NCBI GenBank assembly: GCA_964474085.1
Contig: CAYYRJ010000010.1
Location: 12,606 to 76,605 of the forward strand
DNA length: 64,000 bases
Direction: 5' to 3'
Source of the DNA: an uncultured Planctomycetales bacterium
Lineage (GTDB): Bacteria > Omnitrophota > Gorgyraeia > Zapsychrales > JANLHA01
Below, one piece after another: positions 4,814 to 56,366 of the stretch. A program made the translations under genes and the position numbers. Below the pieces are notes generated by a model. That model worked only from the letters and a program-made list of their open reading frames with translations. It made no database searches and was not told the DNA's origin. Positions within the stretch are counted from its first letter, which is position 1, and each line of letters begins with the position of its first letter.

Positions 4814-4887
4814 AAAATTATTCAAAAAATTATTAAGGGGTTCAGGTAAATTGTAATCCTGAAGAGGTTTTTTTGAGATGGTCGGGC

Positions 4888-4928
4888 CGCCATCTGATTT
4901 TAGTGATCAGATGGCGTTTATTTTTTTA
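4888..4928 (+). terminator. rho-independent terminator
   Basis: 11-bp perfect stem cgccatctgat / atcagatggcg with a 7-nt loop, followed by tttattttttt. Confidence 0.6.
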
Positions 4929-4944
4929 CGATAGGAGCAGACCA

Positions 4945-7206: not shown

Positions 7207-7210
7207 TAAA

Positions 7211-9113: not shown

Positions 9114-9124
9114 GGAGAATCAAT

Positions 9125-10918: not shown

Positions 10919-11092
10919 TAGATATCGACGGCAAATAATCAAAATATACTTTTAAAAAGAGTTAGGGTATTATGTTGGGGCAATGTTCTGACGTCCAATG
11001 TCCCGACACCTTTGAGATGTGCTTGGAGTCAAGACACATTTCTGTAGTCGATAGGATTTAATTCTGTTTTTAAAAAATATTGTTAAATAATT

Positions 11093-26838: not shown

Positions 26839-27210
26839 ATGAAACAGATTAAAAAGTTTGTGTTGATGGGGGCAGGGTTTTTGTTTGTAGCCTTGGGTGT
26901 TATCGGCTTCTTTTTGCCGGTTATGCCTAGCGTTCCTTTTTTTATTCTTGCGTCGATTTGTTTTTCGAAAAGTTCTGAAAAGTTTCATGATATGTTGATG
27001 AATAATAAATGGGTTGGGCCCCAAATTAGAGACTATCATCAGAATAATGGAATTAAGATGAGCACAAAGATTTTTTTGATTGTTTTGCAATGGTCGGGGA
27101 TATTATTTACGTCGATATTCTTTGTTCATAACCTGTTTGGAAGAGTCCTTATGCTTTGTATTGCCGTGGGCGTGACCGTTTACATAGTCTCGTTAAAAAC
27201 TGCCAAATGA
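26839..27210 (+). CDS. DUF454/YbaN-family inner membrane protein
   Basis: GFFLPVMPSVPFFILASICFSKSSEKFH, then a xGPxIRDY motif. Confidence 0.75.
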   Translation: MKQIKKFVLMGAGFLFVALGVIGFFLPVMPSVPFFILASICFSKSSEKFHDMLMNNKWVGPQIRDYHQNNGIKMSTKIFLIVLQWSGILFTSIFFVHNLFGRVLMLCIAVGVTVYIVSLKTAK

Positions 27211-28076
27211 CAAAAAAACCTAAAACCAAGACAGCTATCAGCAGAGGCCGCCGGGGTCTTTCAAAAAAGAAACCACACGAAACCCGCAAGGCTGAGCGCG
27301 TGCGGTTGCAGGGGCGGGTTAATTTTTTAAGTGATTCGCGAGATCAGTTGGATTTGGAACTCAAAGAACAGCGCGAAGAGCTTTTGCATGTAACACGCGT
27401 TGGCAAAATGGCAGAATTTGTTTCATCTTTAGCGCATGAAATTAGCCAGCCGCTGACGGCTATTCTTTCCTATGCTCAAGGTGCCAAGCGCATGCTGGGT
27501 AATCGGGAACCAGAGATACAAGAAATTTTGCAGTACATAATTAATGATGACCAGCGGGCGGCTGAGGTTATAAGGCAGTTGCGTTCGCTGCTTAAGAAAA
27601 GTGAGCCGCAGATAACGCTTTTAGATATCAATGCGCTTATCAGCGAAACGGTTTTGCTGCTCTCTGCGGATGCGACAGCCAAAAAAAATATTCTTAAGCT
27701 AGAGCTTAGTGCAAATATCCCGATGATAAAAGGCGATCGGATACAGCTGCAGCAGGTGCTTATAAATCTTATTAGCAATAGTTTTGACGCCATGCACGGC
27801 AGTAAACAGTCACATCAGATGGTGATTCGCACTTTACGTAAAGATCCAGAAACAATTTTAGTCGGAGTGCAGGACACAGGCTGCGGTATTGCGCCAGAGA
27901 ACATGACTAAAATTTTTTCGCATTTTTTTACCAGTAAGCCCGACGGGTTGGGCATGGGCCTGTCAATCAGCCGTTCGATCATTGCTGAGCATGGCGGAAT
28001 TTTGGAAGCAAAGAATAATCCTGATTGCGGCGCGACTTTTTATTTTACTTTGCCGATTGTTAGCAAACAGCTATGA
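27207..28076 (+). CDS. soluble sensor histidine kinase (no TM or sensor domain)
   Basis: HisKA LAHEISQPL plus HATPase_c. Start overlaps the YbaN stop (ATGA). Confidence 0.75.
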   Translation: MTKKPKTKTAISRGRRGLSKKKPHETRKAERVRLQGRVNFLSDSRDQLDLELKEQREELLHVTRVGKMAEFVSSLAHEISQPLTAILSYAQGAKRMLGNREPEIQEILQYIINDDQRAAEVIRQLRSLLKKSEPQITLLDINALISETVLLLSADATAKKNILKLELSANIPMIKGDRIQLQQVLINLISNSFDAMHGSKQSHQMVIRTLRKDPETILVGVQDTGCGIAPENMTKIFSHFFTSKPDGLGMGLSISRSIIAEHGGILEAKNNPDCGATFYFTLPIVSKQL

Positions 28077-28699
28077 AGAGTACAAAACCTATCGTTTATG
28101 TCGTTGATGATGATCTTTCTGTTTGCCGCGCTTTATCTGTTTTGTTAACTGCCAACGGGTTTTGGGTTGAAACTTTTAATCGGCCAGAGGATTTTTTGGC
28201 TTTCAAGCATCCGCATTTGACCGCTTGCCTTGTTTTGGATATTCGTATGCCTAAATTCAGCGGCTTTGAGCTTAGCGAAATAATGGCTCAACGCAAAATT
28301 GAAGTGCCTGTCATTTTCATAACCGGTCACGGCGATATCCCGATGAGCGTCAAGGCGATGAAGGCTGGTGCTATTGATTTTTTGCCTAAGCCGTTTACCC
28401 AAAAACAATTGCTGGCCGCTATTACTTTGGCTTTGATTAGAAGTAAAAAACAAAATTTAGAAAAATCGCAAATTGCGAGGATCAAAGGCCGCATCAAAAC
28501 TTTGTCGGTCCGCGAATTGGAGGTTTTTCGTTTTGTTGCTTTAGGGATGTTAAGCAAGCAGATTGCCTTCAAGCGTGGAACGTCCCTGCAAACGATCAAA
28601 GTCCACCGCTCCCGCGTCATGCAAAAGATGGACGCAAAAACCGTCACCGAGCTTATTGCCTTTGCGCAAAAAGCCGGCATAGTCTCTCTGCCACAATAA
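28073..28699 (+). CDS. FixJ/LuxR-family response regulator (REC + HTH)
   Basis: VVDDD REC domain and a LuxR-type HTH. ATGA overlap with the HK gene. Confidence 0.8.
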   Translation: MKSTKPIVYVVDDDLSVCRALSVLLTANGFWVETFNRPEDFLAFKHPHLTACLVLDIRMPKFSGFELSEIMAQRKIEVPVIFITGHGDIPMSVKAMKAGAIDFLPKPFTQKQLLAAITLALIRSKKQNLEKSQIARIKGRIKTLSVRELEVFRFVALGMLSKQIAFKRGTSLQTIKVHRSRVMQKMDAKTVTELIAFAQKAGIVSLPQ

Positions 28700-28832
28700 T
28701 CTTTCAATAATAAAATTCATTCTCTCGTCGGGAAAGTCCGCTATTATACCTCGGTACAATTGCATCGCTTCGCCTCTTGCCTAAAATACAATCATGAATT
28801 TAGAAAACACACCATCTAAGGAGAAAAGCCCG

Positions 28833-29219
28833 ATGCTCTCAGATAAAAGAAAAGTCTTTATTGTTGACGATGACATTTCGGTTCGACGTGCCCTGGGGAT
28901 TCTTTTAAAGACTTATGAGTTTATTGTCGAAGCTTTTTCATCCGCTGAAGAGTTTTTTAGTGCTGTGCCCAACAGCGTTGCAGGCTGTTTACTCTTGGAT
29001 ATCCATATGCCCGGCCTAGACGGCTGGGGTACCCTTTCGCGGCTGCAAGCGTCAGGGTCAAAACGTTCGGTGATTATGATTACCGCCGAAAAGAATAATG
29101 GGGTAAGGGCCCGGGCGATGAGTGCAGGCGCCACGGGATTTTTACAAAAACCATTTAACGACCAAGAGTTGGTTGCTTTGATCAACCAGTCGTTTTTGGA
29201 AAGGAGGTCACCATGTTAA
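28833..29219 (+). CDS. single-domain response regulator (REC only)
   Basis: FIVDDD...[11 protein letters not shown]...FLQKPF. AAGGAG RBS places the start at 28833. Confidence 0.7.
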
Positions 29220-29406: not shown

Positions 29407-30183
29407 ATGAATATGGATCATGTGAAAGTTTTGGTTGCATCTTTAGGGGTGGTTTTAATGATGGGTTCATCCGCGGGTGCTTCGCAAACGGATGAACGGA
29501 TTGAAGCCTCTGCCAAGAAGTCGTATGTTTTTAAGACGTATCTTAAAGACGACAGTATTAACACCCAGTCAAAAGATGGCGTGGTTACTTTGACGGGCAC
29601 GGTCGCCGAAGAATCACACAGATCATTGGCCCAGGAAACAGTGGCCAATTTACCCGGAGTTGTCAACGTCGATAACCAGTTAAAACTACAAGGGCAAGTG
29701 CCCGTTGAGAATTCGGATAATTGGATCGGGATGCAGGTTAAGTATTCGCTACTTTACAATCGCAATGTCAGCGGCATTAATACAAAAGTTGCTGTTGTTG
29801 ATGGCATTGTTACGTTAAAAGGCGAAGCCGAGAATCAAGCGCAGATTGACTTGGCTGGTGAATATGCCAAGGACATCAAAGGGGTCAAGGACGTCAAGAA
29901 TGAAATGACGATTGCTAAAGTTATCAGTGTCCCTAAGCAAACTTTAGCCGAAAAGATCGATGATGCTTCGATTACCGCGCAAATAAAGATGGCGCTTTTA
30001 TCGCATCGCTCGACGAGTGCTTTTAAAACCGGCGTGGCGACTTTAAACGGGGAAGTTACTTTGACCGGCAAAGCCGACAATGCCGCTGGAAAAGATATCG
30101 CCAGCAAACTTGCCAATGATGTTTATGGCGTGACAAAAGTGGTCAATAACATGACTATTGAAGATGTTTTGTCAAAAAAATAG
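29407..30183 (+). CDS. periplasmic BON-domain protein (OsmY-like, three BON repeats)
   Basis: Signal peptide plus three repeats of GVVTLTG...A...PGV..V.N.L. Confidence 0.8.
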   Translation: MNMDHVKVLVASLGVVLMMGSSAGASQTDERIEASAKKSYVFKTYLKDDSINTQSKDGVVTLTGTVAEESHRSLAQETVANLPGVVNVDNQLKLQGQVPVENSDNWIGMQVKYSLLYNRNVSGINTKVAVVDGIVTLKGEAENQAQIDLAGEYAKDIKGVKDVKNEMTIAKVISVPKQTLAEKIDDASITAQIKMALLSHRSTSAFKTGVATLNGEVTLTGKADNAAGKDIASKLANDVYGVTKVVNNMTIEDVLSKK

Positions 30184-30276: not shown

Positions 30277-30417
30277 ATGAAAAAGAATTTAATGTTGATT
30301 TTTACCGCTGTGTTTTTAACAACGATGATCGCAGGTTGCAATATGTTTAAAGGCGCTGGAAAAGACATGGAAAACGCCGGCAAAGGGATTCAAAAAACAG
30401 TGGACCGTAATGATTAA
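30277..30417 (+). CDS. entericidin-like small lipoprotein, 46 aa; not in ORF track
   Basis: MKKNLMLIFTAVFLTTMIAGCNMFKGAGKDMENAGKGIQKTVDRND, with a lipobox and a glycine-rich amphipathic tail. RBS aaaggggg. Confidence 0.65.
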   Translation: MKKNLMLIFTAVFLTTMIAGCNMFKGAGKDMENAGKGIQKTVDRND

Positions 30418-30420
30418 ACG

Positions 30421-30609
30421 TTGTTTTTGGCATTTGCGCAAGCAGGAGGCATTATTAAAAAATTGGTCGTTTCTCTAAAGGGAAGAAAATGTAAATATCC
30501 AAGATGCAAGCACATCTTAAGTATTTATAACCATGAAATTTATTGTCACGTTCATGCCGCCAGTCTGGAGGACCGAAAAGGGGGGCAAGGGGTATGCGCG
30601 GGGATTTAA
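30421..30609 (+). CDS. putative small zinc-ribbon protein (start uncertain)
   Basis: C-KYPR-C ... C-HVH spacing suggests a metal ligand set. Overlaps the GtrA start. No clean RBS. Confidence 0.25.
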   Translation: MFLAFAQAGGIIKKLVVSLKGRKCKYPRCKHILSIYNHEIYCHVHAASLEDRKGGQGVCAGI

Positions 30610-30977
30610 AAGAAATCTTGCGTTTTTCAATGGCCGGCGCTTTAGCCGGTTGTGTCGACTTAAGCGTTTATTTTCTTTTGATCCCTTTCGTATCTTTTAA
30701 CATTTCTAAAGCGATTTCTTTTACCTGCGCCGGAATTATCGCGTATTTGCTAAATAAGTTTTGGATATTTAAAAGTAAGATGTCTGTTTCCTATCAAGAA
30801 ATTGGGCGCTATATTCTCGTCAATCTTTTAGCTTTGGTGATTAATATTTTGACTAATCAGGGCATTTTAAAACTCTGGCCTTCGTCTTTTCTTTTAGCTT
30901 GGAGCATCGCTTCAATAGCTACCGGTTTGGTGACTTTTTTGGGCTTTAAATGGTGGGTTTTTCGTTATCCGAAGTAA
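30594..30977 (+). CDS. GtrA-family membrane protein
   Basis: 127 aa with 4 TM helices and the GtrA-like pattern FxxxGxxxxxxNxxLxxxxxF...KWWVFR. Confidence 0.7.
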   Translation: MRGDLKEILRFSMAGALAGCVDLSVYFLLIPFVSFNISKAISFTCAGIIAYLLNKFWIFKSKMSVSYQEIGRYILVNLLALVINILTNQGILKLWPSSFLLAWSIASIATGLVTFLGFKWWVFRYPK

Positions 30978-31044
30978 TGCGTATAGAAAGCCTCTGGTCA
31001 GGGAAGTATAATAAACTCAGATAAAAACAAAATTGAGGTTTGCC

Positions 31045-33315
31045 ATGTGGTGGAAATGGTTGCCGTGGAAATTTCTTGTTCGTCAGGCAGCGCGCCGGCA
31101 GGGGTTTTTAGACCCGATTAAACTGCTTTCGCAATTGCAGAATTTTGCCCAGCCCTCTGAAGTTGCCGCCCCGACGGAGTTATTGCGTTCCGGCGTTGTT
31201 CTTCACGCGCGGGGCTTGATGAACAGTTTGGCGATTCAGCATAATTTAGACTGGGTTTGGCCGTATTGGGTCGAATGCCAATATGATCCGCTTAACAGAG
31301 CGTTTATTCCCAGATCGTTTTCTTTAACACAAATTAATCTTACACATCGAAATTGGACGGCTTTAGGCGTTCCTGACGGTGTCGAGTTTCCGCTGGTTGA
31401 CCCCCGAGGGCTTTTGACGCCGTTTTATGATAGCTGGTCGATCGATGTTTGGATTATCCCCCAAACTGGGCAGCCGCTTTTTCCTTCGCGCTGTCCGACG
31501 GTATCCCAAAAATTGATCATAAAAGACAATCTTTGCGTCACAACAGAATCAAGTCTTGATTCTCTAAAATTGCAATTAAAGGCCAAGGTCATTGGCAGCG
31601 CGCAAACGCCGGTCTGCCAGCTAAAAATTTCAGCATCATCGTCGGTCAAAGCGCGGCTGGTTGTTTCTCTAAGACCGTATAATCCAGAAGGGGTCAGCTT
31701 TATCAATACGATAGCGATGATGGAAGATTCTTTGGGATGGAAAGTTAACGGCGAGCATTCGATCTATTTTGATAAAAAGCCGCACCAATGTATTTTTTGT
31801 AATTATCAACAGGGGGATGTTTATAGCCGTTTGTCTTTCCCTGAGCCTGAACATGAAATTTCCTGTCACGTCGGCATGGCCACTGCGGCGGCGACTTACA
31901 CATTATCTGAGGGAGAGATGCAAGAAATTACGGTTTTAATCCCATTGTCAAAACACCCTTTTAAAAAAGAAAATTCCAGTCACGATGAAAAAACAGCCGA
32001 TTCTTTATGGGAAAAAAGTTTAGAAGGCGCCTGCCGTTTGCAAATTCCCGACGAGCATTTTATGTTCCTTTATCAGGCGGCGCTTAAGACGATGGTTTTG
32101 CATTCCCCTCGCGAAGTTTATCCGGGGCCGTTTATTTATCGGCGGTTTTGGTTTCGTGACGCCGCTTTTATTTTGCACGCGCTTCTGGCGGTCGGATTAA
32201 AAGACCGCGTCAAACGCGCCTTGGATTGTTTTCGCGCACGCCAGACGAATCAAGGGTATTTTCTTTCGCAAGAAGGCGAATGGGATTCCAACGGTCAAGC
32301 GCTTTGGATTATCGAGCAGTATTGCCGGATGAGTGGAAATCCGCCGGCAGAACAATGGGAAAACTCGATTAAAAAGGCAGGCGAATGGATTTGCAAAAAG
32401 TGTTTGCCTGAGGATTTGCCTTCTGCGCACGCCGGTCTTTTGCCGTCGGGCTTTAGCGCTGAACATTTGGGACCCAACGATTTTTATTATTGGGATGATT
32501 TTTGGGGTGTCTCGGGGTTAAAGGCTGCAGCTTTTTTGTGTGAAAAAAACAAGAGCGCAAAATTGTCGATCAAGTTTGAAAAAAAAGCATTCGCTTTATT
32601 AGAAAGCATTATGGAAAGTTTAAAAAAAGTCCAAGCGCGTTTGCACCGACCGGCAATCCCGGCTTCGCCGTATCGACGTCTTGATACAGGCGCTATCGGC
32701 TCTTTGGTGGCGGGGTATCCGCTTCGAATTTTTAAACCCGATGATCAAAGGCTTTTAGACACGGCAGATTTTTTAATGAAAAACTGTTTGGTCGCTGGCG
32801 GATTTTTTCATGACATGACCCACTCTGGGATCAATCCTTATCTGACGCTGCATTTGGCCCAAGTGCTTTTGCGCGCCGGTGATGAACGTTATTTTCCGCT
32901 GATGACGGCGGTCGCAAATCTTGCTTCCCCGACGGGACAATGGCCCGAGTCAGTGCATCCGCAAACCTTAGGCGGCTGCATGGGAGACGGGCAGCATGTT
33001 TGGGCAGCGGCTGAATGGGTGCTTATGGTCCGCAACTGTTTTGTCCGTGAAGAAGAGCAAAGTCTTATTTTGTGCAGCGGGATCTCTAAAGAGTGGCTTT
33101 TACAAAAACAAACAATGAGCTTTGGCCCGGCCCCGACGAGTTTTGGCGACATTCAAGTTTTTATAAAAGTTAATGAAGAAAATATTGTTGTTGAGTGGAA
33201 AGGCCAATGGTTTGGCCAAGCGCCGTCGATTGAAATTCGTTTGCCGGGGTTTGCGCCAGAGCGTGTTTTGCCGGGAGTCGATCAGCTGGTTTTAAAACTT
33301 GAGGCAAAGTCATGA
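31045..33315 (+). CDS. large six-hairpin (alpha/alpha)6 glycosidase-like protein (GDE_C / GH63 / GH116-like; family unresolved)
   Basis: 756 aa with an N-terminal beta-rich region, then FIYRRFWFRDAAFILHALLAVG and QGYFLSQEGEWDSNGQALWI resembling the W-x-RD...Q..G motifs of amylo-alpha-1,6-glucosidase-type barrels. ATG at 31045 after GAGG. Confidence 0.45.
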   Translation: MWWKWLPWKFLVRQAARRQGFLDPIKLLSQLQNFAQPSEVAAPTELLRSGVVLHARGLMNSLAIQHNLDWVWPYWVECQYDPLNRAFIPRSFSLTQINLTHRNWTALGVPDGVEFPLVDPRGLLTPFYDSWSIDVWIIPQTGQPLFPSRCPTVSQKLIIKDNLCVTTESSLDSLKLQLKAKVIGSAQTPVCQLKISASSSVKARLVVSLRPYNPEGVSFINTIAMMEDSLGWKVNGEHSIYFDKKPHQCIFCNYQQGDVYSRLSFPEPEHEISCHVGMATAAATYTLSEGEMQEITVLIPLSKHPFKKENSSHDEKTADSLWEKSLEGACRLQIPDEHFMFLYQAALKTMVLHSPREVYPGPFIYRRFWFRDAAFILHALLAVGLKDRVKRALDCFRARQTNQGYFLSQEGEWDSNGQALWIIEQYCRMSGNPPAEQWENSIKKAGEWICKKCLPEDLPSAHAGLLPSGFSAEHLGPNDFYYWDDFWGVSGLKAAAFLCEKNKSAKLSIKFEKKAFALLESIMESLKKVQARLHRPAIPASPYRRLDTGAIGSLVAGYPLRIFKPDDQRLLDTADFLMKNCLVAGGFFHDMTHSGINPYLTLHLAQVLLRAGDERYFPLMTAVANLASPTGQWPESVHPQTLGGCMGDGQHVWAAAEWVLMVRNCFVREEEQSLILCSGISKEWLLQKQTMSFGPAPTSFGDIQVFIKVNEENIVVEWKGQWFGQAPSIEIRLPGFAPERVLPGVDQLVLKLEAKS

Positions 33316-34778
33316 CCCAAAGTCTTCTTACAGGATTTAGAAATTTCTTGGTACTAAGCACTGGTCAATTTATTGATCCGCACGAGATTGAAGCGCTTTA
33401 TACCCAATCGGCTCCTGTCAAAGAAATGTGTGTTTTTGCGATTTTAGGGATGAAAGGTCATAAGAAATCAAAAGTGCTCTGGGCGGTCATTGTGCCGGAT
33501 TTAGAGCAGTTTAGAGAATTTGATGAAGTTAATTTGCGTGCTGTGATTGGAGAGCGTTTTGATAATGCGGCGCAGGCACTGCCGGTTTACAAAAGGCTTA
33601 AAGGTTTTACCCTGACCCTCAAAGATTTGCCGCATACGTATTTGGGAGCTGTGGACACAAGTCAGGTCAAAAAAATATTTGAACCTCGTGTGTTGGCCGG
33701 ACTAGAAGGAAGTATTTCTGGTGGTGGCAAGATTTCACCAGAGGATTTGCTTTTACGTGAATCATCGACGGGAAAGAAAGTCCTGGAATGTTTAATGCTG
33801 CAGAGCAAAGCAAATCAGCCGATCACTCTTGAAGATTCTCTGGAGTTGGATTTAGGGATTGATTCCTTAGGGCGTATTGAGCTTGCTTCGCGTTTAGCAC
33901 TTGGGTTTAGCGCTGATATTAAGCCGGAGGTTATTTCAAAATCGTTTAGGATCAAGGCGCTTATTGTAAGTATTAACGAAGCCTTAAAAGATGCAAAAGC
34001 TATTCTTCCGTCAGATGAAGGCTTGACTTTGGGAGCGGATTATTGGGAAGAACATCTAAATGTCCTGCCTAAAAAAGAAACGCTGGATATGCTCGAGCTG
34101 GGAACAGGCTATTTTGCGTGGCTGTTTCGGTTTGTCATAACAGCTATTAATTTTGTGATTTTTAAATTATTTTTTCAGATTAAAGGGCAAGGTGCTGAGT
34201 ATGTACCGAAAGAAGGCGCTTTTATTCTTTACGGCAATCATACAAGTTTTTTGGACGGTTCGGCGATTGCCGCTTGCCTGCCACGTCGACGCGTGTTTCA
34301 ACTCTTTTATTTTGTTTTTGGCCCGTATTTTTTTAGACCTTTCGAAAAATCCAGTGTTTTGCGCAACTTAGTCAAGATGGGACGCTTTATTCCGTTTGAT
34401 TATTCAACGCATTTTTTGGAGGCTTTGCGCAGTAGTTATTATGTTTTACAGCAGGGAAAGGGCTTATGTTTTTTCCCGGAAGGCTTGCGAAGTACGACGG
34501 GAGAAATCGGTGAATTTAGAAAGGGTTTTGGCGTTTTGGCCAAAGAAACGGGTGCTAAACTTGTTCCGGTCGCGATAGACGGAGCGCACGAGGCTTGGAG
34601 CAGCACGGCCAAGTTCCCGCGCTGTTATCCTATTCGTGTGCGTTTTGGAAAACCCCTTTTACCGGCGGATTTAGAAAAGCAAGGGTTTGCGATGGGTGCC
34701 AAAAACAGTTATGAGGCTATTTGTATTGCCGCGCGTGCGGCGCTTATCGAATTAAAAAACGATAAAGGTAAGATATGA
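33312..34778 (+). CDS. tri-partite protein: C-terminal remnant of an acyl-CoA/ACP synthetase, an acyl-carrier domain and an LPLAT (PlsC-like) acyltransferase
   Basis: Residues 1-120 match a FACL-type C-terminus (EMCVFAI, KVLWAVIVPDLEQ, LPVYKRLKGFTLT). The DLGIDSLGRIELA phosphopantetheine site is at ~180. NHTSFLD (HxxxxD) and FPEGLRS acyltransferase motifs follow. ATGA overlap with the upstream gene. Confidence 0.65.
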   Translation: MTQSLLTGFRNFLVLSTGQFIDPHEIEALYTQSAPVKEMCVFAILGMKGHKKSKVLWAVIVPDLEQFREFDEVNLRAVIGERFDNAAQALPVYKRLKGFTLTLKDLPHTYLGAVDTSQVKKIFEPRVLAGLEGSISGGGKISPEDLLLRESSTGKKVLECLMLQSKANQPITLEDSLELDLGIDSLGRIELASRLALGFSADIKPEVISKSFRIKALIVSINEALKDAKAILPSDEGLTLGADYWEEHLNVLPKKETLDMLELGTGYFAWLFRFVITAINFVIFKLFFQIKGQGAEYVPKEGAFILYGNHTSFLDGSAIAACLPRRRVFQLFYFVFGPYFFRPFEKSSVLRNLVKMGRFIPFDYSTHFLEALRSSYYVLQQGKGLCFFPEGLRSTTGEIGEFRKGFGVLAKETGAKLVPVAIDGAHEAWSSTAKFPRCYPIRVRFGKPLLPADLEKQGFAMGAKNSYEAICIAARAALIELKNDKGKI

Positions 34779-37700
34779 AAATTCTTATGATGACAAATTC
34801 CTATGCGCCTATGGTCGGCGGCATCGAGGAGTCGATACGCTCGTTTAGTGCCGAGTTTGAAAAATTAGGGCATGAGGTTATGATCGTGGCCCCCGAGTGT
34901 GAGGGAGCGCCGTTAGACGAGGTAGGCGTTATCCGTCTTCGGGCGATACAAAATTTTAATAATTCGGATTTTTCTATCGCACTGCCTATGTCGAGTCTTT
35001 TGCCAGAACTGATCAAAACTTTTAAGCCGGACATTATTCATAGTCATTATCCCTTTTGGATGGGCAGCATTGCGCTTCGTTTAAGCGGACAGTTTAAGAT
35101 TCCGCTGGTCTTTACGTATCACACGATGTTTGAACAGCACATGCATTATTTACCGGTTCAAAATGAGGGCGTGCAGAGGTTTATCGTCGAGATTTTTGCC
35201 GGTTACGCAAACTTGGCAAACCAAGTCGTGGTTCCCAGTGAAAGTGTCCGCGTTATTCTTTTAGAGCGCGGGGTAAAGACCCCCATCGCTGTTGTGCCAA
35301 CGGGAGTTGATTTACAGAGGTTTTCGCGCGGGGACGGCAAGGTGGTCCGTCACCGGCTGGGGATTGCGCAGGATGCGCCTTTGATCGGTTATGTCGGTCG
35401 TCTGGCCTTGGAAAAAAATCTTGAATTTTTAAGCTCTGCTGTGGCCGCGTATTTAAAACAAGAAACGAGTGCGCATTTTGTCGTCGGTGGCGATGGCCCG
35501 CTCAAAGAACTTATCCAAAAGATTTTTGACGAGCAAGGAGTCGGTAAGCGTCTGCATTTTGCCGGTGTGCTTAAAGGCCAAGATTTAGTTGACTGTTATC
35601 AGGCGATGAATGTGTTTGCCTTTGCTTCATTAAGCGAAACGCAGGGCATTGTTTTGGTCGAAGCAATGGCCGCCGGCGCTGCGGTTGTGGCTTTGGATGC
35701 GCCCGGCGTGCGTGAAGTGCTCAAAGATGGTTACAATGGCCGTCTTGTTTTTGGCGAAAATAAAAATAATTTTGTTGAGGCGCTTTCGTGGTGTTTGAAG
35801 TTGCCGGCCAATGAGTTTGTGCGTATTAAAGAAAACGCAAAAACAACGAGCAAAGAATTTTCAGTCAACAGTTGCGCACTGCGTATGCTTAAAACTTACG
35901 ACGAGGTTTTGGTCAAAGAGTATTCGTCGCCCGATTATAAGAATAGTCCGTGGGATGCTTTGGCCGGCCGGCTTAAAAACGAGTGGGACATGTTTAAAAA
36001 TGTGTTGGAATCCGGTACGAGTGCTATTGTCGACACAAGCAGTTTGCCAAAGCCGCTTGTCAAAAAAGCCAGGGGATTGTTTCTTCGTCTGCCGAGGCTT
36101 TTGTCGTTAAGCGAATGGTCCGCTAAATTGTTGCGTTTGCCCCGCACGCAAGATACGCAAACGGATCCCGGCCTTGTGCTTATTCAGATTGACGGGTTTT
36201 CGGGCGGTCAGTTTAAGAAAGCTATTGAACAGGGAAAAATGCCTTTTCTCAAAGGTCTGCTGCAAAAACAATACTACACGCTTTATCCGCAGTATCCGGG
36301 TTTGCCGTCGAGCACGCCGTCAGTGCAGGGGGAATTGTTTTATGGGGTCAAACAAATTGTCCCTGCTTTTGCTTTTTGGGACCGCGAAACGCAAAAAATT
36401 TTTCGTATGTATGACGGCCCGGCGGTTTTGGAAATTGAGCGGCGTCTGGCCGCTCAAGGCCAAGGTCTTTTGGCAGAAGGGAGCTCTTACTCTAATATAT
36501 ATTCAGGCGGCGCTATGCAATCGCATTTTTGTGCCACATCTTTGGGGTGGAGCAAAATTTGGAAAGAAATTAACCCACTGAACTTTTTTATTCTGATCTT
36601 GACGCATTTTCCTTCTTTTGTCCGCATGATGGCCTTAACGGCATGGGAAATGATTTTAGGCGCTGTTGATTTTGGCTGGGGGATACTAAGGGGTGAGAAT
36701 TTTAAAAATGAATTTAAATTTATTTACCTGCGAGCGTTAATTTGTGTTCTTTTGCGTGAGCTTGTGACCTTAGGCGTCAAAATCGATATCGTGCGCGGCT
36801 TGCCGATTATTCATGTCAACCTTTTAGGCTACGATGAATTAGCCCACCATAGCGGTCCGTCTTCCACGTCGGCACATTGGTCTTTAAAAGGGATTGACCG
36901 CGCTATCGAAAAAATTTATGGCAAAGCTCTTCATTCTTCGGCGCGCAGTTACGATGTTTGGATTTATTCGGATCATGGGCAAGAGGACACCGTTTCATAC
37001 GCGGCTAAGTACAAGCGCAGTATCGAAGAAGCGGTTGCCGAAGTTTATAAAGAATTTGACGCAACGGCCCAATTTTCGGTTGTTGATAAAACCAGCGAAC
37101 AGTTGCAGCGTGCGCGTTTTTTAGGATTTTCATTTTTGGAAAAGTTTTTTAGCGGTGTTTCTTTTCCTAAAGAAAATCTTTTAGAAAACAAGCTGATTGT
37201 CACGGCCATTGGCCCGACGGGAAATATTTATTTGCCCCGACAGATGAGCTTGGAGGAAAAGTGCCGTTTTGCGCAATGCTTGGTCGCAAAGGCTTATATT
37301 CCTGTGGTCATGTTTGTAGACGAACAAGGAAAAGTCCGCGTGTGGACTGACCAAGGCGAATTTTGTTTGCCGCAAGATGCCAAAACAATTCTGGGTGCGG
37401 ACCATCCCTATTTGGCCGCGGTTACTGAGGATATTATTGCCCTTTGTCAGCACAAGAATGCAGGAGACTTTACGTTGATGGGATATCAGCCGAACAAAAA
37501 ACCGATGAGCTTTCCGCTTGAAAACGGTTCGCACGCCGGACCGGCCCCAAAGGAAACAGATGGCTTTGCACTTTTGCCCAAGGACATTATTCCCCGACAA
37601 AGAACCCGGGAGTATATTACCCCGATGGATTTGCGTTTTGCCGCTTTACGGTTCTTGAAGCGTTCTGTCCCGAAAGAAAACAAGTCCTATCCAGAAATTA

Positions 37701-38467
37701 TATTTCCTCAAAAGAGTGCTGTGGACAAAGAAACTATTCGCGTGATGACTTATAATGTCCACTCCTGTATCGGCATGGACGGCAAAATTTCGCCAGAGCG
37801 CATTGCGCGTGTCATCGGACGCCATCAGCCGGATATTGTAGCGCTCCAAGAGTTGGACTTAGGCCGCAAGCGCACTGGGCAAATCGATCAGCCGCAGCTT
37901 ATTGCCAAGGAATTAGAAATGCATTATCACTTTCATCCGTCAGTCATTGTCGACGAAGAACATTACGGCAATGCGATTCTTAGCCGATATCCGCTGGATC
38001 TTGTCCGTGGTGGACATTTGCCGGAAATTGCCCGGCATCGGATGGTCGAACGCCGCGGCGCGATTTGGGCAACAGTCAATATCGGTAAAACAAGGATTAA
38101 TTTCTTTAATACGCATTTTGGTCTTCTGCCGCGTGAGGCGATTTTGCAGGCGCAGGCACTGCTGGGGGCAGAGTGGATTTCTCATTTCGTCTGTCAGGGG
38201 CCGGTTATTTTGTGCGGAGACTTTAATTCTTTACCTAATTCGCAGGTCTGCCGCGATATTAAAAAAGTCTTGCGCGATGCCCAAGGAGAATTGGACAATC
38301 ATCGTCCTAAATCGACGTGGTTTAGCCATTATCCGATCGGCCGGATTGATCATGTCTTTGTCAGTCCGGATATTGAAGTGACTCATGTTGAAGTTTCCCG
38401 CAGCGATTTAGACAAGCTCGCTTCAGATCACCTGCCGCTTATTGTGGACATTAAATTAAAGAAATAG
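34775..38467 (+). CDS. 1230-aa fusion: GT4 glycosyltransferase + AlkP-superfamily phosphodiesterase (NPP/PglZ-like) + endonuclease/exonuclease/phosphatase (EEP) domain
   Basis: GT4 region: ETQGIVLVEAMAAGAAVVALDAPG. Middle region: IQIDGFSGGQF...MPFLKGL...PSSTPS...YSDHG. C-terminal region: MTYNVHS...ALQELD...GDFNS...IDHVFVS. ATGA overlap with the upstream gene. Confidence 0.7.
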   Translation: MKILMMTNSYAPMVGGIEESIRSFSAEFEKLGHEVMIVAPECEGAPLDEVGVIRLRAIQNFNNSDFSIALPMSSLLPELIKTFKPDIIHSHYPFWMGSIALRLSGQFKIPLVFTYHTMFEQHMHYLPVQNEGVQRFIVEIFAGYANLANQVVVPSESVRVILLERGVKTPIAVVPTGVDLQRFSRGDGKVVRHRLGIAQDAPLIGYVGRLALEKNLEFLSSAVAAYLKQETSAHFVVGGDGPLKELIQKIFDEQGVGKRLHFAGVLKGQDLVDCYQAMNVFAFASLSETQGIVLVEAMAAGAAVVALDAPGVREVLKDGYNGRLVFGENKNNFVEALSWCLKLPANEFVRIKENAKTTSKEFSVNSCALRMLKTYDEVLVKEYSSPDYKNSPWDALAGRLKNEWDMFKNVLESGTSAIVDTSSLPKPLVKKARGLFLRLPRLLSLSEWSAKLLRLPRTQDTQTDPGLVLIQIDGFSGGQFKKAIEQGKMPFLKGLLQKQYYTLYPQYPGLPSSTPSVQGELFYGVKQIVPAFAFWDRETQKIFRMYDGPAVLEIERRLAAQGQGLLAEGSSYSNIYSGGAMQSHFCATSLGWSKIWKEINPLNFFILILTHFPSFVRMMALTAWEMILGAVDFGWGILRGENFKNEFKFIYLRALICVLLRELVTLGVKIDIVRGLPIIHVNLLGYDELAHHSGPSSTSAHWSLKGIDRAIEKIYGKALHSSARSYDVWIYSDHGQEDTVSYAAKYKRSIEEAVAEVYKEFDATAQFSVVDKTSEQLQRARFLGFSFLEKFFSGVSFPKENLLENKLIVTAIGPTGNIYLPRQMSLEEKCRFAQCLVAKAYIPVVMFVDEQGKVRVWTDQGEFCLPQDAKTILGADHPYLAAVTEDIIALCQHKNAGDFTLMGYQPNKKPMSFPLENGSHAGPAPKETDGFALLPKDIIPRQRTREYITPMDLRFAALRFLKRSVPKENKSYPEIIFPQKSAVDKETIRVMTYNVHSCIGMDGKISPERIARVIGRHQPDIVALQELDLGRKRTGQIDQPQLIAKELEMHYHFHPSVIVDEEHYGNAILSRYPLDLVRGGHLPEIARHRMVERRGAIWATVNIGKTRINFFNTHFGLLPREAILQAQALLGAEWISHFVCQGPVILCGDFNSLPNSQVCRDIKKVLRDAQGELDNHRPKSTWFSHYPIGRIDHVFVSPDIEVTHVEVSRSDLDKLASDHLPLIVDIKLKK

Positions 38468-38540: not shown

Positions 38541-40184
38541 ATGCGTATTTTGATTGTAGGCGGTGTTGCCGGCGGAGCTTCTGCAGCGGCGCGGGCGCGC
38601 AGGTTGTCGGAGGATGCAGAGATCATTATTTTTGAACGCACCGAGCATGTGTCTTTTGCTAACTGCGGCTTGCCGTATCATGTCGGTGGGGTCATTAAGG
38701 AAAGGGCAAAGCTTTTGGTCCAAACTCCCGAGTCATTGTATCGGCGCTTTCGTATCACAACAAAAGTTAAGACGGAAGTTTTGTCGATTGACCGTTCGCA
38801 AAAAAATATTACCGTCAAAAATTTGGTCACAGGACAAGAGTCCAAAGAGGCGTATGATTTTTTGATTTTAAGTCCCGGCGCGGATCCGATCAAGCCGCCT
38901 ATGCCTGGCTTAGGTTTACCGCAGGTTTTGACTTTGCGCAATTTAGCGGACATGGATAAGATTATCGCGAAGATTGCGCAGGGTAAGGCCCAAAAAGCGC
39001 TGGTCGTTGGCGGAGGATACATTGGTTTGGAAATGACTGAGGCTTTGTGCGAACGTGGACTTCGGGTGACGATCGTTGAGCTTTCGTCGCAGGTGATGGG
39101 GCCCTGCGATCCTGAGATGGCGTACTATTTACATCAAGAGCTGACTAAACATGGGGTTGAATTAAAATTTGGTGTTTCGGTCAAAAGTTTTTCTCAGGCT
39201 TCTGATGGTGTTTTGGCAGAATTAAGCGATGGGCAGTCGATCACATGTGATTTTGTTATTTTAGCTATTGGCGTTAAGCCCGACGTAAGTCTAGCCAAAA
39301 ACGCAGGGTTAACAATCGGTGAGCGCGGCGGCATTGTTGTCAATGACAAGATGCAGACAAATGACCCGAGCATTTTTGCCGTCGGGGATGCGATTGAAGT
39401 TGAGGAATTTGTGACTGGCACAAAAGCTTTGATCCCTTTGGCGGGGCCGGCTAACCGGCAAGGTCGTATTGCGTCAGATAATATTTTTGGCCGCAACGTG
39501 ATTTACAAAAAGACTCAAGGCACAGCAATTTGCAAATTGTTTGATCTGACGATCGGCATGACGGGAGTTAATGAAAAGATTTTAAAACGGATGAATATGC
39601 TTTACGAAAAAGTTTATATTCACCCTAATCATCATGCCAGCTATTATCCGGGCGCTGTGCCAATGAGCATGAAGTTACTTTTTGATCCTAAGAGCGGAAA
39701 AATTTTAGGAGCTCAAGCTGTCGCAAGCCAAGGCGTCGATAAGCGCATTGATGTTTTGGCGGTGGCTCTGCGGGCGGGGATGACGGTTTATGATTTAGAA
39801 AATTTAGAGCTCTGTTATGCTCCGCCGTATGGCGCGGCCAAAGATCCGGTTAACTTTTTGGGATTTGTTGCGGCCAATTTGCTTAAAGGCGATTTTAAAC
39901 AGTGTCACAGCGACGATATAAAATCATTAAAGCCGGACCAAATTATTTTAGATGTCAGGTCAGCCAAAGAAGCGCAAGCCGGCATGATTGCAGGGGCCGT
40001 GAATATTCCCGTCGATGATTTGAGGGACAAGTTGCGAGAGCTTTCAAAGGACATAGAATATTTAACGTATTGTCAGGTGGGTTTGCGCGGCTATCTGGCG
40101 TGCCGGATACTGATGCAAAACGGCTTTAAATGCCGAAACCTCTCCGGCGGGTATCAAACGTATAAATCGACTTTAGGTGATTGA
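38541..40184 (+). CDS. CoA-disulfide reductase / NADH-dependent persulfide reductase with C-terminal rhodanese domain
   Basis: FAD-binding VGGVAGGASAA, redox-active SFANCGLPY, and a rhodanese active site YCQVGLRG. Confidence 0.85.
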   Translation: MRILIVGGVAGGASAAARARRLSEDAEIIIFERTEHVSFANCGLPYHVGGVIKERAKLLVQTPESLYRRFRITTKVKTEVLSIDRSQKNITVKNLVTGQESKEAYDFLILSPGADPIKPPMPGLGLPQVLTLRNLADMDKIIAKIAQGKAQKALVVGGGYIGLEMTEALCERGLRVTIVELSSQVMGPCDPEMAYYLHQELTKHGVELKFGVSVKSFSQASDGVLAELSDGQSITCDFVILAIGVKPDVSLAKNAGLTIGERGGIVVNDKMQTNDPSIFAVGDAIEVEEFVTGTKALIPLAGPANRQGRIASDNIFGRNVIYKKTQGTAICKLFDLTIGMTGVNEKILKRMNMLYEKVYIHPNHHASYYPGAVPMSMKLLFDPKSGKILGAQAVASQGVDKRIDVLAVALRAGMTVYDLENLELCYAPPYGAAKDPVNFLGFVAANLLKGDFKQCHSDDIKSLKPDQIILDVRSAKEAQAGMIAGAVNIPVDDLRDKLRELSKDIEYLTYCQVGLRGYLACRILMQNGFKCRNLSGGYQTYKSTLGD

Positions 40185-40185
40185 T

Positions 40186-40599
40186 ATGAATAGCGTTTAT
40201 TTGTGCGGATTTTTAGGCGGGATGCTCATTGGCGCTGCTGCTGTTTTGTTGTTTTGGTTTAACGGCCGGATTATGGGAGTCAGCGCTATCAGCTCAAAAC
40301 TATTGGGTAAGCCGGACAAAGATTTTTTGTGGCGTTTGGCTTTTGTCTTGGGGCTTGTCGTGGGGGGATTTTTATATCAGCTTAAATTTCCGGTTGTTGC
40401 CGTTATCAAAGCCGATGTTGGGACTTTGATCATCGCTGGATTGCTTGTGGGATTTGGAACCGTGTTGGGCAACGGCTGCACGAGCGGGCATGGGATTTGT
40501 GGCATGGCAAGGTTCTCTAAGCGTTCAATCGCCGCAACCCTTAGCTTTATGGCAGCCGGGATTTTGACAGTGGCCATTAAGAATATGTTGGGAGGTTAA
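40186..40599 (+). CDS. YeeE/YedE sulfur-transport family protein, half-size (part 1)
   Basis: GNGCTSGHG motif. Alternative GTG start at 40177. Confidence 0.75.
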   Translation: MNSVYLCGFLGGMLIGAAAVLLFWFNGRIMGVSAISSKLLGKPDKDFLWRLAFVLGLVVGGFLYQLKFPVVAVIKADVGTLIIAGLLVGFGTVLGNGCTSGHGICGMARFSKRSIAATLSFMAAGILTVAIKNMLGG

Positions 40600-41004
40600 A
40601 TGACAAGTATCGTTGCTTTTTTTTGCGGGCTTATCATGTCTTTGGGCTTGATTATTTCTGGCATGGTCAATCCGCAAAAGGTGATTGGGTTTTTGGATAT
40701 GTTTAGACATTTTGACCCGACCCTGGCCTTTGTTATGGCGGGCGCTTTGCTGGTTGCGGCCGTCGGGTTTCGTCTCGTCGGATGCGGTAAGCCGTTATTG
40801 TGTGAGTGTTTTGATTTACCTAAAAAAAATAAAATTGATGCCCCGCTGATTATAGGCGCCGTAATTTTTGGTGTTGGCTGGGGCTTGGCCGGGTTTTGTC
40901 CGGGGCCGGCGATTGTTGGCGTAGGGTTAGGGTTACCTTACGCTGGTGTTTTTGTGCTGGCTATGCTTTTGGGGATGTTTTTTGCCAGAAAGGTTTTAAA
41001 ATGA
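40600..41004 (+). CDS. YeeE/YedE sulfur-transport family protein, half-size (part 2)
   Basis: Homologous half encoded as a separate gene. GGAGG RBS. Confidence 0.75.
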   Translation: MTSIVAFFCGLIMSLGLIISGMVNPQKVIGFLDMFRHFDPTLAFVMAGALLVAAVGFRLVGCGKPLLCECFDLPKKNKIDAPLIIGAVIFGVGWGLAGFCPGPAIVGVGLGLPYAGVFVLAMLLGMFFARKVLK

Positions 41005-53143: not shown

Positions 53144-53210
53144 GGAACGAGAAGAAGTTTTTTCTATTAAAGCAACTGCTTTGTTGCTGATTCCAGCATC
53201 CCTTTATATT

Positions 53211-56200: not shown

Positions 56201-56366
56201 ACATGAAATCTGGATTGTCGATTACAAGAGTTCGCGCGAAGGTCATGAAAAATTTGTTGAACAAATCCGGGAATATATTCAGATCGTTGGCGAAATCCAT
56301 GCTCATAAAAAGGTCAGGGGATTTTTGATTTATCTGGATGAAGTGCTCGTCGAGGAAGTCATGTAA
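53211..56366 (+). CDS. AddA/RecB-like UvrD-family helicase with C-terminal PD-(D/E)xK nuclease
   Basis: ASAGSGKT, DEFQDT and VGDKKQAIYGFRGG helicase motifs. C-terminal IDRLIV...IWIVDYKSS nuclease motif. Confidence 0.8.
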   Translation: MPMTKELNEIFTLPQVRVVEASAGSGKTYCLARRYVQLLLHPRFSGDKILLRNILAITFTNKASYAMKGRILEFLKKIALGVMPPTEVKEILTPIDLSLEDAKPVAGRIMDELICRYNFFQVQTIDSFINALLSGCAFKIGLSAGFKIKRNYLEYLEHSFDRMIDQSADDKAIFEILSRFLYQYLFLENKTGWFPKKDMLGLLSALYSQSNTYGRDFLPFGKGGDDLYQRKKEILSLLRDLQTSLPQGTHKRFAESLKDFLAQYQDGFDFDRISEYLSWENVPVTKGVIVSQELDRLWKKIQKQLIFLSEREAYSLFDPYIDVFNQVNDDFHLQAAKDDVLFLPELNRRARELFDEGKVTVEELYYRLANRFQHYLLDEFQDTSRLQWQNLEMMIEEALSVGGTLFYVGDKKQAIYGFRGGEVKLFDEIKQRFGAFNVRVEALSTNYRSQKAIVDLNNQVFSPENLRRFIAQLQEEKSEAAPLGAMDIREVESIFHGAEQKVSDGHDGGYVQIEYVEPTGKGEINEQIRLRLLAVIADLKKRFSLSEIAILTRSNLEVEQITSWLMQNGIFVESERTLNIKENPLIVELIAYLKFLDSPIDNLSFAKFLSGEIFHKVSGLPQQEIHSFLFSHRPALDAKKDFYLYRAFRQQYPFLWDKIFDEFFKNVGLFALYELSTSLFRRLEVYANFPDEHGFFMRFLELVKEKEEEFSDLNSFLEHFEFLENDELFVNVVNSDAIKILTTHKSKGLEFPVVIIPFLAMKVHAASSGGLGQQSYIVDASEDHLKLLRIKKKYLSFSEKLAQVERVQKVQSFISELNNIYVALTRAEHELYAFIPQKIGSSTNILKFLIPPQCLKINHPQEHVQAKERIRENRLSLPVLGDHNWIDFLKEEFVDAASVFRRKELQRGVVLHDFLSRIKNLYKVDKAQAINSALQQCKLQYPQQADWHSFESDIKRIFESRDLEPFFVISDGEVFVEKNLVNSAGFTRRIDRLIVKPHEIWIVDYKSSREGHEKFVEQIREYIQIVGEIHAHKKVRGFLIYLDEVLVEEVM

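Follow-up and report, generated by a model that had tools for sequence, protein, structure and literature searches.

A widespread pairing of a GH15-like glycosidase candidate with a GT4 glycosyltransferase, possibly serving stress-linked glycolipid metabolism

We analysed a 64,000-nucleotide (nt) stretch of contig CAYYRJ010000010.1, hereafter the window, whose host is a Candidatus Omnitrophota bacterium, and within it a locus that encodes a GtrA-like protein followed by three large proteins, here called the products of genes 1, 2 and 3. The genes at the locus are the following, with protein lengths in amino acids (aa):

Start 30543 (TTG) or 30594 (ATG), end 30977, + strand: GtrA-like open reading frame (ORF), 127 aa from the ATG, PF04138 at 2.3e-19
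Start 31033 (TTG) or 31045 (ATG), end 33315, + strand: gene 1, 756 aa from the ATG, no Pfam family
33312–34778, + strand: gene 2, 488 aa, with a relic AMP-binding C-terminal subdomain, a carrier domain and PlsC
34775–38467, + strand: gene 3, 1230 aa, with GT4, PF01663 and EEP domains

A preliminary description of this DNA had given these genes with ATGA overlaps at 33312 and 34775, and both the ORF list and the junction sequence bear this out: the gene 1/gene 2 and gene 2/gene 3 junctions read GTCATGACC and ATATGAAA, each an ATGA start/stop overlap, and it is these overlaps that suggest co-transcription of genes 1–3. The GtrA-like ORF and gene 1 are separate genes in different frames with a 67-nt gap between them (30978–31044); the gap holds a promoter-like match (TAGAAA-17-TATAAT), such matches being not above chance, and a consensus promoter and terminator scan of the locus returned matches no better than those in shuffled sequence. 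The 756-aa product of gene 1 (ATG start) is identical to a database protein (P0121) and the 1230-aa product of gene 3 is 100% identical to another (P0001), and the named relatives of both are also from Candidatus Omnitrophota. Since homologues at 40–75% identity are numerous for each protein, these genes are not a product of chance. Hidden Markov model searches of Pfam and NCBIfam gave every domain of the preliminary assignment again, while a curated equivalog threshold was reached by none of the four proteins.

We collected neighbourhoods by exact-protein look-ups of relatives and by a scan of species-representative genomes, which confirmed at least 512 relatives and from which 80 loci were retained, giving about 90 related loci altogether. 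The loci were compared by tblastn of each window domain, by a count of arrangements and by all-against-all clustering of neighbouring ORFs. A GT4 match was present in 56 loci, two of which had too little upstream sequence, leaving 54 that were informative. Gene 1 was adjacent to GT4 in 42 of these 54, directly upstream in 41 and downstream in one. The hosts of this pair include Omnitrophota, Planctomycetota, Verrucomicrobiota (Opitutaceae), Desulfobacterota, Alpha- and Gammaproteobacteria and others, the proteobacterial hosts including Thiohalophilus, Aliiglaciecola, Microbulbifer, 'Ca. Methylobacter favarea', Arhodomonas, Magnetospirillaceae and Geminicoccaceae. Two loci labelled 'Halobacteria archaeon' (L007 and L014) carry a full series of a VTT-domain gene, gene 1, GT4 and the phosphoesterase gene described below at 44–58% identity to the window, which reflects either mis-binning or transfer into archaea.

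An optional third component is a protein in which an alkaline-phosphatase-superfamily (AlkP) domain is fused to an EEP domain (AlkP~EEP), as it is in all loci but one. Separate genes for GT4 (about 425 aa) and AlkP~EEP (about 800–860 aa), often overlapping, were found in 24 loci, while 12 loci with gene 1 and GT4 had no AlkP~EEP protein; the AlkP~EEP protein is also found alone, and GT4 can stand alone as well. Among the hosts named above, Arhodomonas sp. SL1 (L047) has gene 1 and GT4, and the cassettes of Aliiglaciecola (L016) and 'Ca. Methylobacter favarea' (L037) include AlkP~EEP. The GT4-AlkP-EEP fusion of gene 3 occurs in the window, in three further loci with gene 1 (L002–L004) and in one without it (L001), and is restricted to Omnitrophota and some Planctomycetota; elsewhere GT4 and AlkP~EEP are adjacent separate genes. 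Gene 2 sits between gene 1 and GT4 in three of the 41 upstream-type loci, all of them Omnitrophota. The common Omnitrophota form is a GtrA-gene 1 fusion followed by a gene 2 orthologue (64–69% identity) and a GT4-alpha/beta hydrolase fusion, sometimes followed by a full 907-aa protein of AMP-binding, acyl carrier protein (ACP) and PlsC domains. In the closest relative with the same gene 3 (L004, 75% identity), gene 1 is followed directly by gene 3, with no gene 2. Because this locus lacks gene 2 and the common Omnitrophota form differs, the window locus is a mixed form.

Thus the conserved core is gene 1 plus GT4, with AlkP~EEP optional, and in most phyla these are three separate genes. We conclude that gene 1 and GT4 are a functional pair, whatever their chemistry, and that the fusions in the window are one packaging of a modular system. 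The preliminary description had taken three coupled giant proteins as the unit; this proves to be a lineage-specific packaging, gene 2 being absent from L004 and from all loci outside Omnitrophota. Nor is the architecture rare: besides the relatives confirmed in the scan, at least 105 of the 120 clusters listed are near full length (at least 1,157 aa). We found no description of the cassette in the literature; it is uncharacterised yet widespread in many bacterial phyla.

Searching from gene 1 gave a similar picture. Two Omnitrophota homologues have GT4 further down the same operon, and among four distant representatives that we examined, a GT4 neighbour was present in two: one, at 36% identity, overlaps the downstream GT4 gene, and in the other, at 29% identity, the GT4 neighbour is divergent. 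In a third (L091, 1078–5141, 32% identity), gene 1 overlaps an upstream 598-aa gene with PF19576 and PF13444, an acyltransferase pair that we take to be the one found in the bifunctional ornithine-lipid synthase OlsF; this contig ends soon after the gene 1 relative, and a GT4 gene may lie beyond. The fourth had neither GT4 nor a PF19576/PF13444 gene beside gene 1. Among the 150 best family representatives, there was no gene 1-GT4 fusion protein.

The gene 1 product (+ strand) has the following layout:

aa 1–105: conserved N-terminal region
aa 110–300: beta-sandwich
aa 308–664: (alpha/alpha)6-like region
aa 668–751: C-terminal beta domain

Its family is large, with 2,227 representative clusters (50% identity) matching at E 1e-3 or better and 463 at 1e-30 or better, the members being mostly 750–800 aa long, and mean column identity is 54% over 29 cassette members from many phyla. 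From its sequence we regard gene 1 as encoding a remote GH15-like glycosidase or transglycosylase candidate. It matched TIGR01577 at E 3.5e-6 (25.9 bits against a cutoff of 820), while the Pfam GH15 model, PF00723, gave no match for gene 1 and E 0.08 in two homologues. A PDB profile search with an Omnitrophota-only alignment gave no match; a more diverse alignment gave two near-significant matches, both to GH15 structures (1lf6, E 0.017; dextran dextrinase, 0.11), in which FWFRD372 aligns with the GH15 WxRD region and YYWD484D with the W-E-D acid motif. WPE635 was placed on the base region by comparison with the window's own true GH15 protein (9071–10918), a comparison itself not significant (hhalign probability 1.6%). 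Residues D372 (FWFRD), D484 (YYWDD) and E635 (WPE) are invariant and are the candidate catalytic residues, and the fold in a model of moderate confidence is nearest glucoamylase, glucodextranase and dextran dextrinase.

Because the comparison with the window's true GH15 was not significant, and no curated threshold was reached, we have not filed gene 1 as a member of GH15. It further differs from the known enzymes of that family (glucoamylase, glucodextranase, trehalase and dextran dextrinase) in its extra conserved N-terminal region of ~100 aa and in its fusion to GtrA in Omnitrophota. We also rejected an identity with the glucosylglycerol hydrolase GghA/Slr1670, which belongs to the unrelated GHL5 family (PMC5002435).

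The GtrA-like protein matches PF04138 with 70.2 bits against a cutoff of 26.1, over model positions 1–117 of 117. Four membrane helices are expected in the GtrA family, and a hydropathy scan of the window protein found three hydrophobic stretches. Among the matches listed, the Omnitrophota homologues of gene 1 are mostly ~890 aa long with an N-terminal GtrA domain (PF04138), and for this reason we consider GtrA and gene 1 to be one functional unit, here split by the 67-nt gap. In other phyla, VTT-domain (DedA/TVP38) proteins occupy the position held by GtrA in Omnitrophota, being encoded immediately upstream of gene 1 or nearby in about 18 of the loci with gene 1 and GT4.

Gene 3 comprises three domains and a linker segment:

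34775–35920, + strand, aa 1–382: GT4 domain, retaining GT-B, Pfam 1–380 at 4e-36 and 2e-32
36050–36103, + strand, aa 426–443: cationic amphipathic segment in the GT4-AlkP linker, KPLVKKARGLFLRLPRLL, hydrophobic moment 0.61, net charge +6
36170–37549, + strand, aa 466–925: alkaline-phosphatase-superfamily domain, NPP branch, PF01663 at 467–753, 6e-8
37733–38467, + strand, aa 987–1229: EEP phosphoesterase domain, YbhP-like, Pfam 991–1219 at 1e-26, PF03372 at 94 bits

We measured conservation in 42 full-length homologues down to 40% identity. Across these, GT4 residues E288 and E296 (EX7E), R209 and K214 are invariant, as are the metal ligands and nucleophile of the NPP-type domain (D473, T514, D687, H691, D733, H734 and H920) and N994, E1026, D1149, N1151, D1192, D1218 and H1219 of the EEP domain; since the catalytic residues are invariant, all three domains look active.

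The two Pfam halves of the GT4 domain, PF13439 and PF00534, score 125 and 112 bits, above their gathering scores. The best NCBIfam match is alpha-monoglucosyl-diacylglycerol synthase (Mgs, NF049988), end to end at 151 bits with a cutoff of 400, and the same model is top for eight further cassette GT4s (nine of nine tested; 139–162 bits, end to end), with GlcNAc-phosphatidylglycerol synthase (NF053787) ranking second, third or fourth for the nine. The cassette GT4s align with these two families end to end but lie far below the 400-bit cutoff, and they are a GT4 subfamily of their own whose partners are fused or coupled to it. The solved structures that match the GT4 domain best in sequence are MshA, sucrose-phosphate synthase, GlgM and PimA. 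The segment at aa 426–443 is helical in the structural model, at low confidence, and could be a membrane-surface helix.

The NPP-type domain passes the PF01663 gathering score, its bimetal site and Thr nucleophile are present, and it contains a helical insertion of ~75 aa at about aa 601–674. Its nearest solved structures are ENPP4 (23.8), the Xanthomonas NPP (23.8), NPP7 (23.0) and NPP6 (22.8). It shares 12–17% identity with NPP6 and NPP7, which are lipid-head-group phosphodiesterases, and with the Xanthomonas NPP, and differs from all three in being cytoplasmic, in its insertion and in its fusion to EEP. The EEP domain aligns with E. coli YbhP over the full length (residues 9–253; 26% identity, E 3e-17), scores 37.9 bits against NCBIfam NF003842 (cutoff 144) and also matches the lipid-remodelling EEP model PGAP2IP (39.8 bits, cutoff 27). 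YbhP is without known function (bioRxiv 10.1101/2022.03.11.483950), and our literature search found none for it. In E. coli, ybhP lies in ybhP-clsB-ybhN, with cardiolipin synthase B and a PplT-type membrane protein, whereas gene 3 joins its EEP domain to an NPP-type domain and couples it to GT4, and cardiolipin synthase is missing from the window. Stand-alone EEP proteins at 45–54% identity to this domain occur in Caulobacter (Caulobacteraceae), Brevundimonas, Rhizobiales and others (L064–L086; L001, 16618–19128). In at least 10 loci such relatives adjoin a cardiolipin-synthase-like gene with two PLD domains, echoing E. coli ybhP-clsB.

Gene 2 is built of the following parts:

33384–33638, + strand, aa 25–109: relic AMP-binding C-terminal subdomain, 18.4 bits, below the cutoff of 24.5
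33807–33935, + strand, aa 166–208: carrier (PP-binding) domain with Ser185, PF00550 at 22.4 bits, cutoff 20.8
34107–34181, + strand, aa 266–290: hydrophobic helix by hydropathy, the sole one in gene 2
34179–34577, + strand, aa 290–422: PlsC acyltransferase, PF01553 at 1e-14 and 54.7 bits, PDB PlsC 5kym at 2.7e-7

Its motifs H310/D315 (HX4D), FPEG388 and S185 (in GIDSL) are kept, while the relic subdomain no longer has the A10 lysine, reading LGAVD where the full-length paralogue at L006 has LGKII. That paralogue is a 907-aa AMP-binding-ACP-PlsC protein encoded directly after a GT4-alpha/beta-hydrolase gene (L006, 16229–18952). The whole length of gene 2 corresponds to its C-terminal half (438–907) at 37% identity, and judged by this alignment gene 2 looks like an adenylation-deficient copy of that half. 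A tblastn search of the window with the L006 adenylation domain found no match, so that acyl loading of gene 2 would have to occur in trans. Among the loci compared by tblastn gene 2 was found only in Omnitrophota, no homologue search having been aimed at it. The best NCBIfam matches of its PlsC domain are Aas/acyl-ACP:phospholipid acyltransferases (PRK08633 and PRK08043, 80 bits), and like Aas it has a carrier domain and the remnant of an acyl-ACP synthetase; unlike Aas, it has no adenylation core, has lost the A10 lysine and follows the order relic-ACP-PlsC.

The locus lies among stress genes. From upstream, the order is OtsA, MscS, OtsB, GH15/TREH_N and a Na+/H+ exchanger, then a P-type ATPase, a kinase with regulators, a BON protein and an entericidin-like protein, the nearer of which are as follows:

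27156–28076, + strand: histidine kinase, Pfam HisKA/HATPase_c
28073–28699, + strand: response regulator with GerE/LuxR output, Pfam Response_reg/GerE
28794–29219, + strand: single-domain response regulator, Pfam Response_reg at 2e-26
29407–30183, + strand: BON/OsmY-like protein, Pfam BON at 8e-48
30277–30417, + strand: entericidin-like lipoprotein, 46 aa, PF08085 exactly at the cutoff

The histidine kinase and the GerE regulator are possible regulators of the cassette, and in two other loci (L005 and L006) the cassette is likewise preceded by a kinase-regulator pair comparable in size and domains. The first five genes form an osmoprotection block (4873–12172) of GT20 OtsA, MscS, OtsB, a true GH15 plus TREH_N trehalase-like protein and a Na+/H+ exchanger; OtsA is 777 aa long and begins with an unexplained extension of about 300 aa that matches nothing in Pfam. 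As the window thus already has a complete trehalose set with a true GH15, gene 1 is not simply a trehalase. A pairing of a TreT-type trehalose synthase with a trehalase is likewise unlikely, given OtsA, OtsB and the true GH15 in the window and a GT4 that matches lipid-acceptor models best. Elsewhere, other Omnitrophota cassettes are flanked by DUF1328, Transgly_assoc, BON and ferritin genes, a planctomycete cassette by HSP20 genes, DnaJ, HtrA and YfdX, and a Desulfobacterota cassette by HSP20. The osmotic-stress setting that had been remarked upon in the window therefore recurs, as a stress-gene setting, in other phyla. A link to phosphate starvation, also proposed, was not seen in the gene context, which is one of osmotic, heat or general stress, no search for Pho boxes having been made.

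From the observed gene order, fusions, active-site conservation and best family matches we infer the substrates, the direction of every step and the regulation in the reading that we tentatively favour, though at somewhat less than an even chance: that the cassette makes and turns over an alpha-linked glycosyl-glycerolipid at the cytoplasmic face of the inner membrane as part of the general or osmotic stress response. GT4 would use a nucleotide sugar to glycosylate diacylglycerol or a different glycerolipid, for instance phosphatidylglycerol, giving an alpha-glycolipid. The NPP-type and YbhP-type domains would supply or recycle the lipid acceptor by cleaving phosphate-containing lipid precursors, either by phospholipase C/D-like action on phospholipids or as a pyrophosphatase and a phosphatase acting on CDP-diacylglycerol. 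Gene 1, held at the membrane by GtrA, would hydrolyse or transglycosylate the alpha-glycoside made by GT4, so that the change could be reversed. GtrA here, and VTT/DedA proteins in other phyla, may serve to bind the lipid or to flip it. A step particular to Omnitrophota would be the re-acylation of a lyso-lipid or the glycolipid by gene 2, with an acyl chain from its own carrier, loaded in trans, and in the sister Omnitrophota forms the lipase-like (alpha/beta hydrolase) fusion would also adjust acyl chains.

A broader claim, that the chemistry concerns a membrane lipid rather than a soluble or nucleotide substrate, we hold with somewhat more assurance than the scheme as a whole. It is favoured by the GT4 matches, by the GtrA and VTT companions and by the YbhP-like EEP domain with its links to cardiolipin synthase. 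Acyl chemistry stands beside the cassette in Omnitrophota in three forms, namely the PlsC/carrier protein, the GT4-alpha/beta hydrolase fusion and the full AMP-binding-ACP-PlsC protein. GT4 enzymes work with retention, yielding alpha products, and alpha-glucosides are the substrates of GH15-type enzymes; the stereochemistry therefore fits a gene 1 enzyme that reverses the GT4 step. The lipid chemistry first proposed for this locus thus stands as the better reading, except that similarity confirms the AlkP and EEP families and does not settle whether their substrates are lipids or nucleotides, the nearest structures being of both kinds with close scores.

Several observations weigh against this glycolipid reading. 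The GT4 family scores far below the curated cutoff (151 against 400 bits), and three of its best solved relatives, MshA, sucrose-phosphate synthase and GlgM, use soluble phosphorylated acceptors. The nearest solved NPP-type and EEP-type structures include nucleotide or nucleic-acid enzymes that score as well as the lipid enzymes, and AlkP~EEP, absent from the 12 loci noted above, is not needed for the core reaction. Gene 1 lies below every curated GH15 threshold, its structural model is of only moderate confidence, and it has no membrane domain outside Omnitrophota; by hydropathy, genes 1 and 3 have no transmembrane helix. Several hosts are halophiles, and a soluble osmolyte would fit them equally well.

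The strongest of the alternatives, though we consider it unlikely, is a soluble glycoside cycle. Here GT4 would act on a soluble phospho-acceptor, the phosphoesterases would dephosphorylate the product, and gene 1 would degrade this compatible solute once stress has passed, much as in the trio of sucrose-phosphate synthase, phosphatase and invertase or that of glucosylglycerate synthase, phosphatase and hydrolase. Such pairs of synthase and hydrolase are typical of solute metabolism, and the best solved GT4 relatives by sequence (MshA, sucrose-phosphate synthase and GlgM), the lack of membrane helices in genes 1 and 3, the osmotic and general stress context and the halophilic hosts (Thiohalophilus, Thiohalobacter, Arhodomonas and Desulfohalobiaceae) all fit. 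A solute cycle does not, however, account for the GtrA-gene 1 fusion, the recurring VTT neighbours or the PlsC/carrier and lipase-like domains of the Omnitrophota variants, and the top curated GT4 matches are lipid-acceptor enzymes. It would moreover have no phosphatase in the 12 loci with gene 1 and GT4 alone or in any of the alpha/beta-hydrolase variants; each of the known solute phosphatases is a single enzyme of the HAD or histidine phosphatase type rather than a fused diesterase-type pair, and OtsA, OtsB and a GH15 trehalase-like protein are already present in the window.

We give less credence to a second alternative, in which the NPP-type domain is a transferase that moves a phospho-head group via its threonine onto the sugar of the glycolipid, freeing diacylglycerol for GT4, with the EEP domain and gene 1 serving to trim or reshape what is made. 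This would liken the system to OpgB, EptA and the ethanolamine-phosphate transferases of glycosylphosphatidylinositol (GPI) synthesis, the last of which we take to be covered by PF01663 as well. The match of the EEP domain to PGAP2IP above its cutoff, the almost invariable fusion of AlkP to EEP beside GT4 and the intact nucleophile and metal sites are all compatible with such a builder of phosphoglycolipids. To our knowledge, however, bacterial head-group transferases are members of the sulfatase-like branch that carry large membrane domains and work on the extracytoplasmic side, whereas the NPP-type domain here is soluble, cytoplasmic and closest to hydrolytic NPPs.

It is improbable that the cassette serves the metabolism of polyprenyl-phosphate-linked sugars, with undecaprenyl phosphate or a sugar derivative of it being recycled or remodelled under envelope stress. 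Relatives of GtrA act with undecaprenyl-phosphate-glucose or form the membrane domain of DPMS, and DedA proteins act on undecaprenyl phosphate, so that both membrane partners, the GtrA fusion and the VTT neighbours, have characterised polyprenyl-phosphate relatives, and NPP- or EEP-type enzymes could cleave polyprenyl-(pyro)phosphate-sugar bonds. Yet clustering of the neighbourhoods showed no recurrent priming phosphoglycosyltransferase or GT2 polyprenyl-phosphate glycosyltransferase, the nearest matches of GT4 are enzymes with glycerolipid acceptors, and glycerolipids are also what PlsC, the lipase-like domain and the links to cardiolipin synthase indicate.

Still more doubtful is a self-feeding cycle that builds a glycolipid decorated with phospho-head groups, a bacterial counterpart of GPI-type or phosphoglycolipid anchors. 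Taken jointly, its steps would be glycosylation of a glycerolipid by GT4, decoration of the sugar by an NPP-type transferase that releases diacylglycerol, remodelling of the lipid by EEP and the acyltransferase, and trimming or reversal by gene 1 as a new, GtrA-tethered glycosidase family. Eukaryotic GPI synthesis uses the same four enzyme classes, each of different origin, in PIG-A (GT4), PIG-N/O/G (PF01663), PGAP2IP/CWH43 (EEP) and acyltransferases. Finally, a cytoplasmic alpha-glucan or acylated oligosaccharide metabolism, with glycogen-synthase-like elongation by GT4, glucoamylase-like trimming by gene 1 and acyl or phospho modifications analogous to those of mycobacterial methylglucose lipopolysaccharide, is very improbable: the fold of gene 1 (nearest glucoamylase, glucodextranase and dextran dextrinase), weaker GT4 matches to glycogen synthases and the presence of an acyltransferase speak for it, but glycogen-synthase models score far below lipid-acceptor models, the clustered neighbourhoods show no recurrent gene for a branching enzyme, a methyltransferase or sugar-nucleotide metabolism, and the membrane partners are left unexplained.

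Among known systems, the glycolipid reading that we favour is closest to PlcP-Agt/Pgt of Sinorhizobium, Agrobacterium and marine heterotrophs, which on phosphate starvation converts phospholipid to diacylglycerol and this to glycosyl-diacylglycerol. Agt is a GT4 glycolipid synthase (PMC5193443). Both systems couple a phosphoesterase gene to a GT4 glycosyltransferase gene. PlcP, however, is a calcineurin-type metallophosphoesterase, while the cassette has fused NPP-type and EEP-type domains (PF01663 and PF03372), and no metallophosphoesterase was found among the window genes scanned with Pfam. PlcP-Agt has no counterpart of gene 1, which is the most conserved partner of the cassette, and it is phosphate-induced, whereas the context of the cassette is one of osmotic, heat or general stress. 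Because the phosphoesterase folds differ, gene 1 is a new partner and no phosphate link was seen, the cassette, although it works most like PlcP-Agt remodelling, is not a member of that system.

If this reading is correct, many bacteria share an undescribed way of replacing phospholipid by glycolipid in response to osmotic stress, heat or drying and not to a lack of phosphate, among hosts as different as the possibly host-dependent Omnitrophota, planctomycetes, sulfate reducers, methanotrophs and halophiles. Its enzymes would have no relation to that of the PlcP step, and it would carry its own means of reversal, an enzyme of a large family that Pfam does not model. It would also give a first functional handle on proteins of the E. 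coli YbhP type, on GtrA fused to soluble enzymes and on VTT/DedA proteins beside lipid genes, and would account for part of the glycolipids that environmental lipidomics has detected. With its broad distribution and so large a gene 1 family, the cassette is well suited to experimental study.

Apart from the cassette and its stress-gene setting, a separate sulfur module lies directly downstream at 38541–41004, consisting of a pyridine-nucleotide-disulfide oxidoreductase-rhodanese fusion (CoA-disulfide-reductase-like) and two short sulfur-transport genes (YeeE/YedE-like and DUF6691). Further on, at 53181–59144, the gene for a UvrD-type helicase (1061 aa) precedes one for a PD-(D/E)XK nuclease protein (925 aa), in appearance an AddAB-like pair. 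Over the whole window (1–64000), nearly all long ORFs lie on the + strand and every 2-kb bin has a positive GC skew, which fits a long leading-strand stretch.

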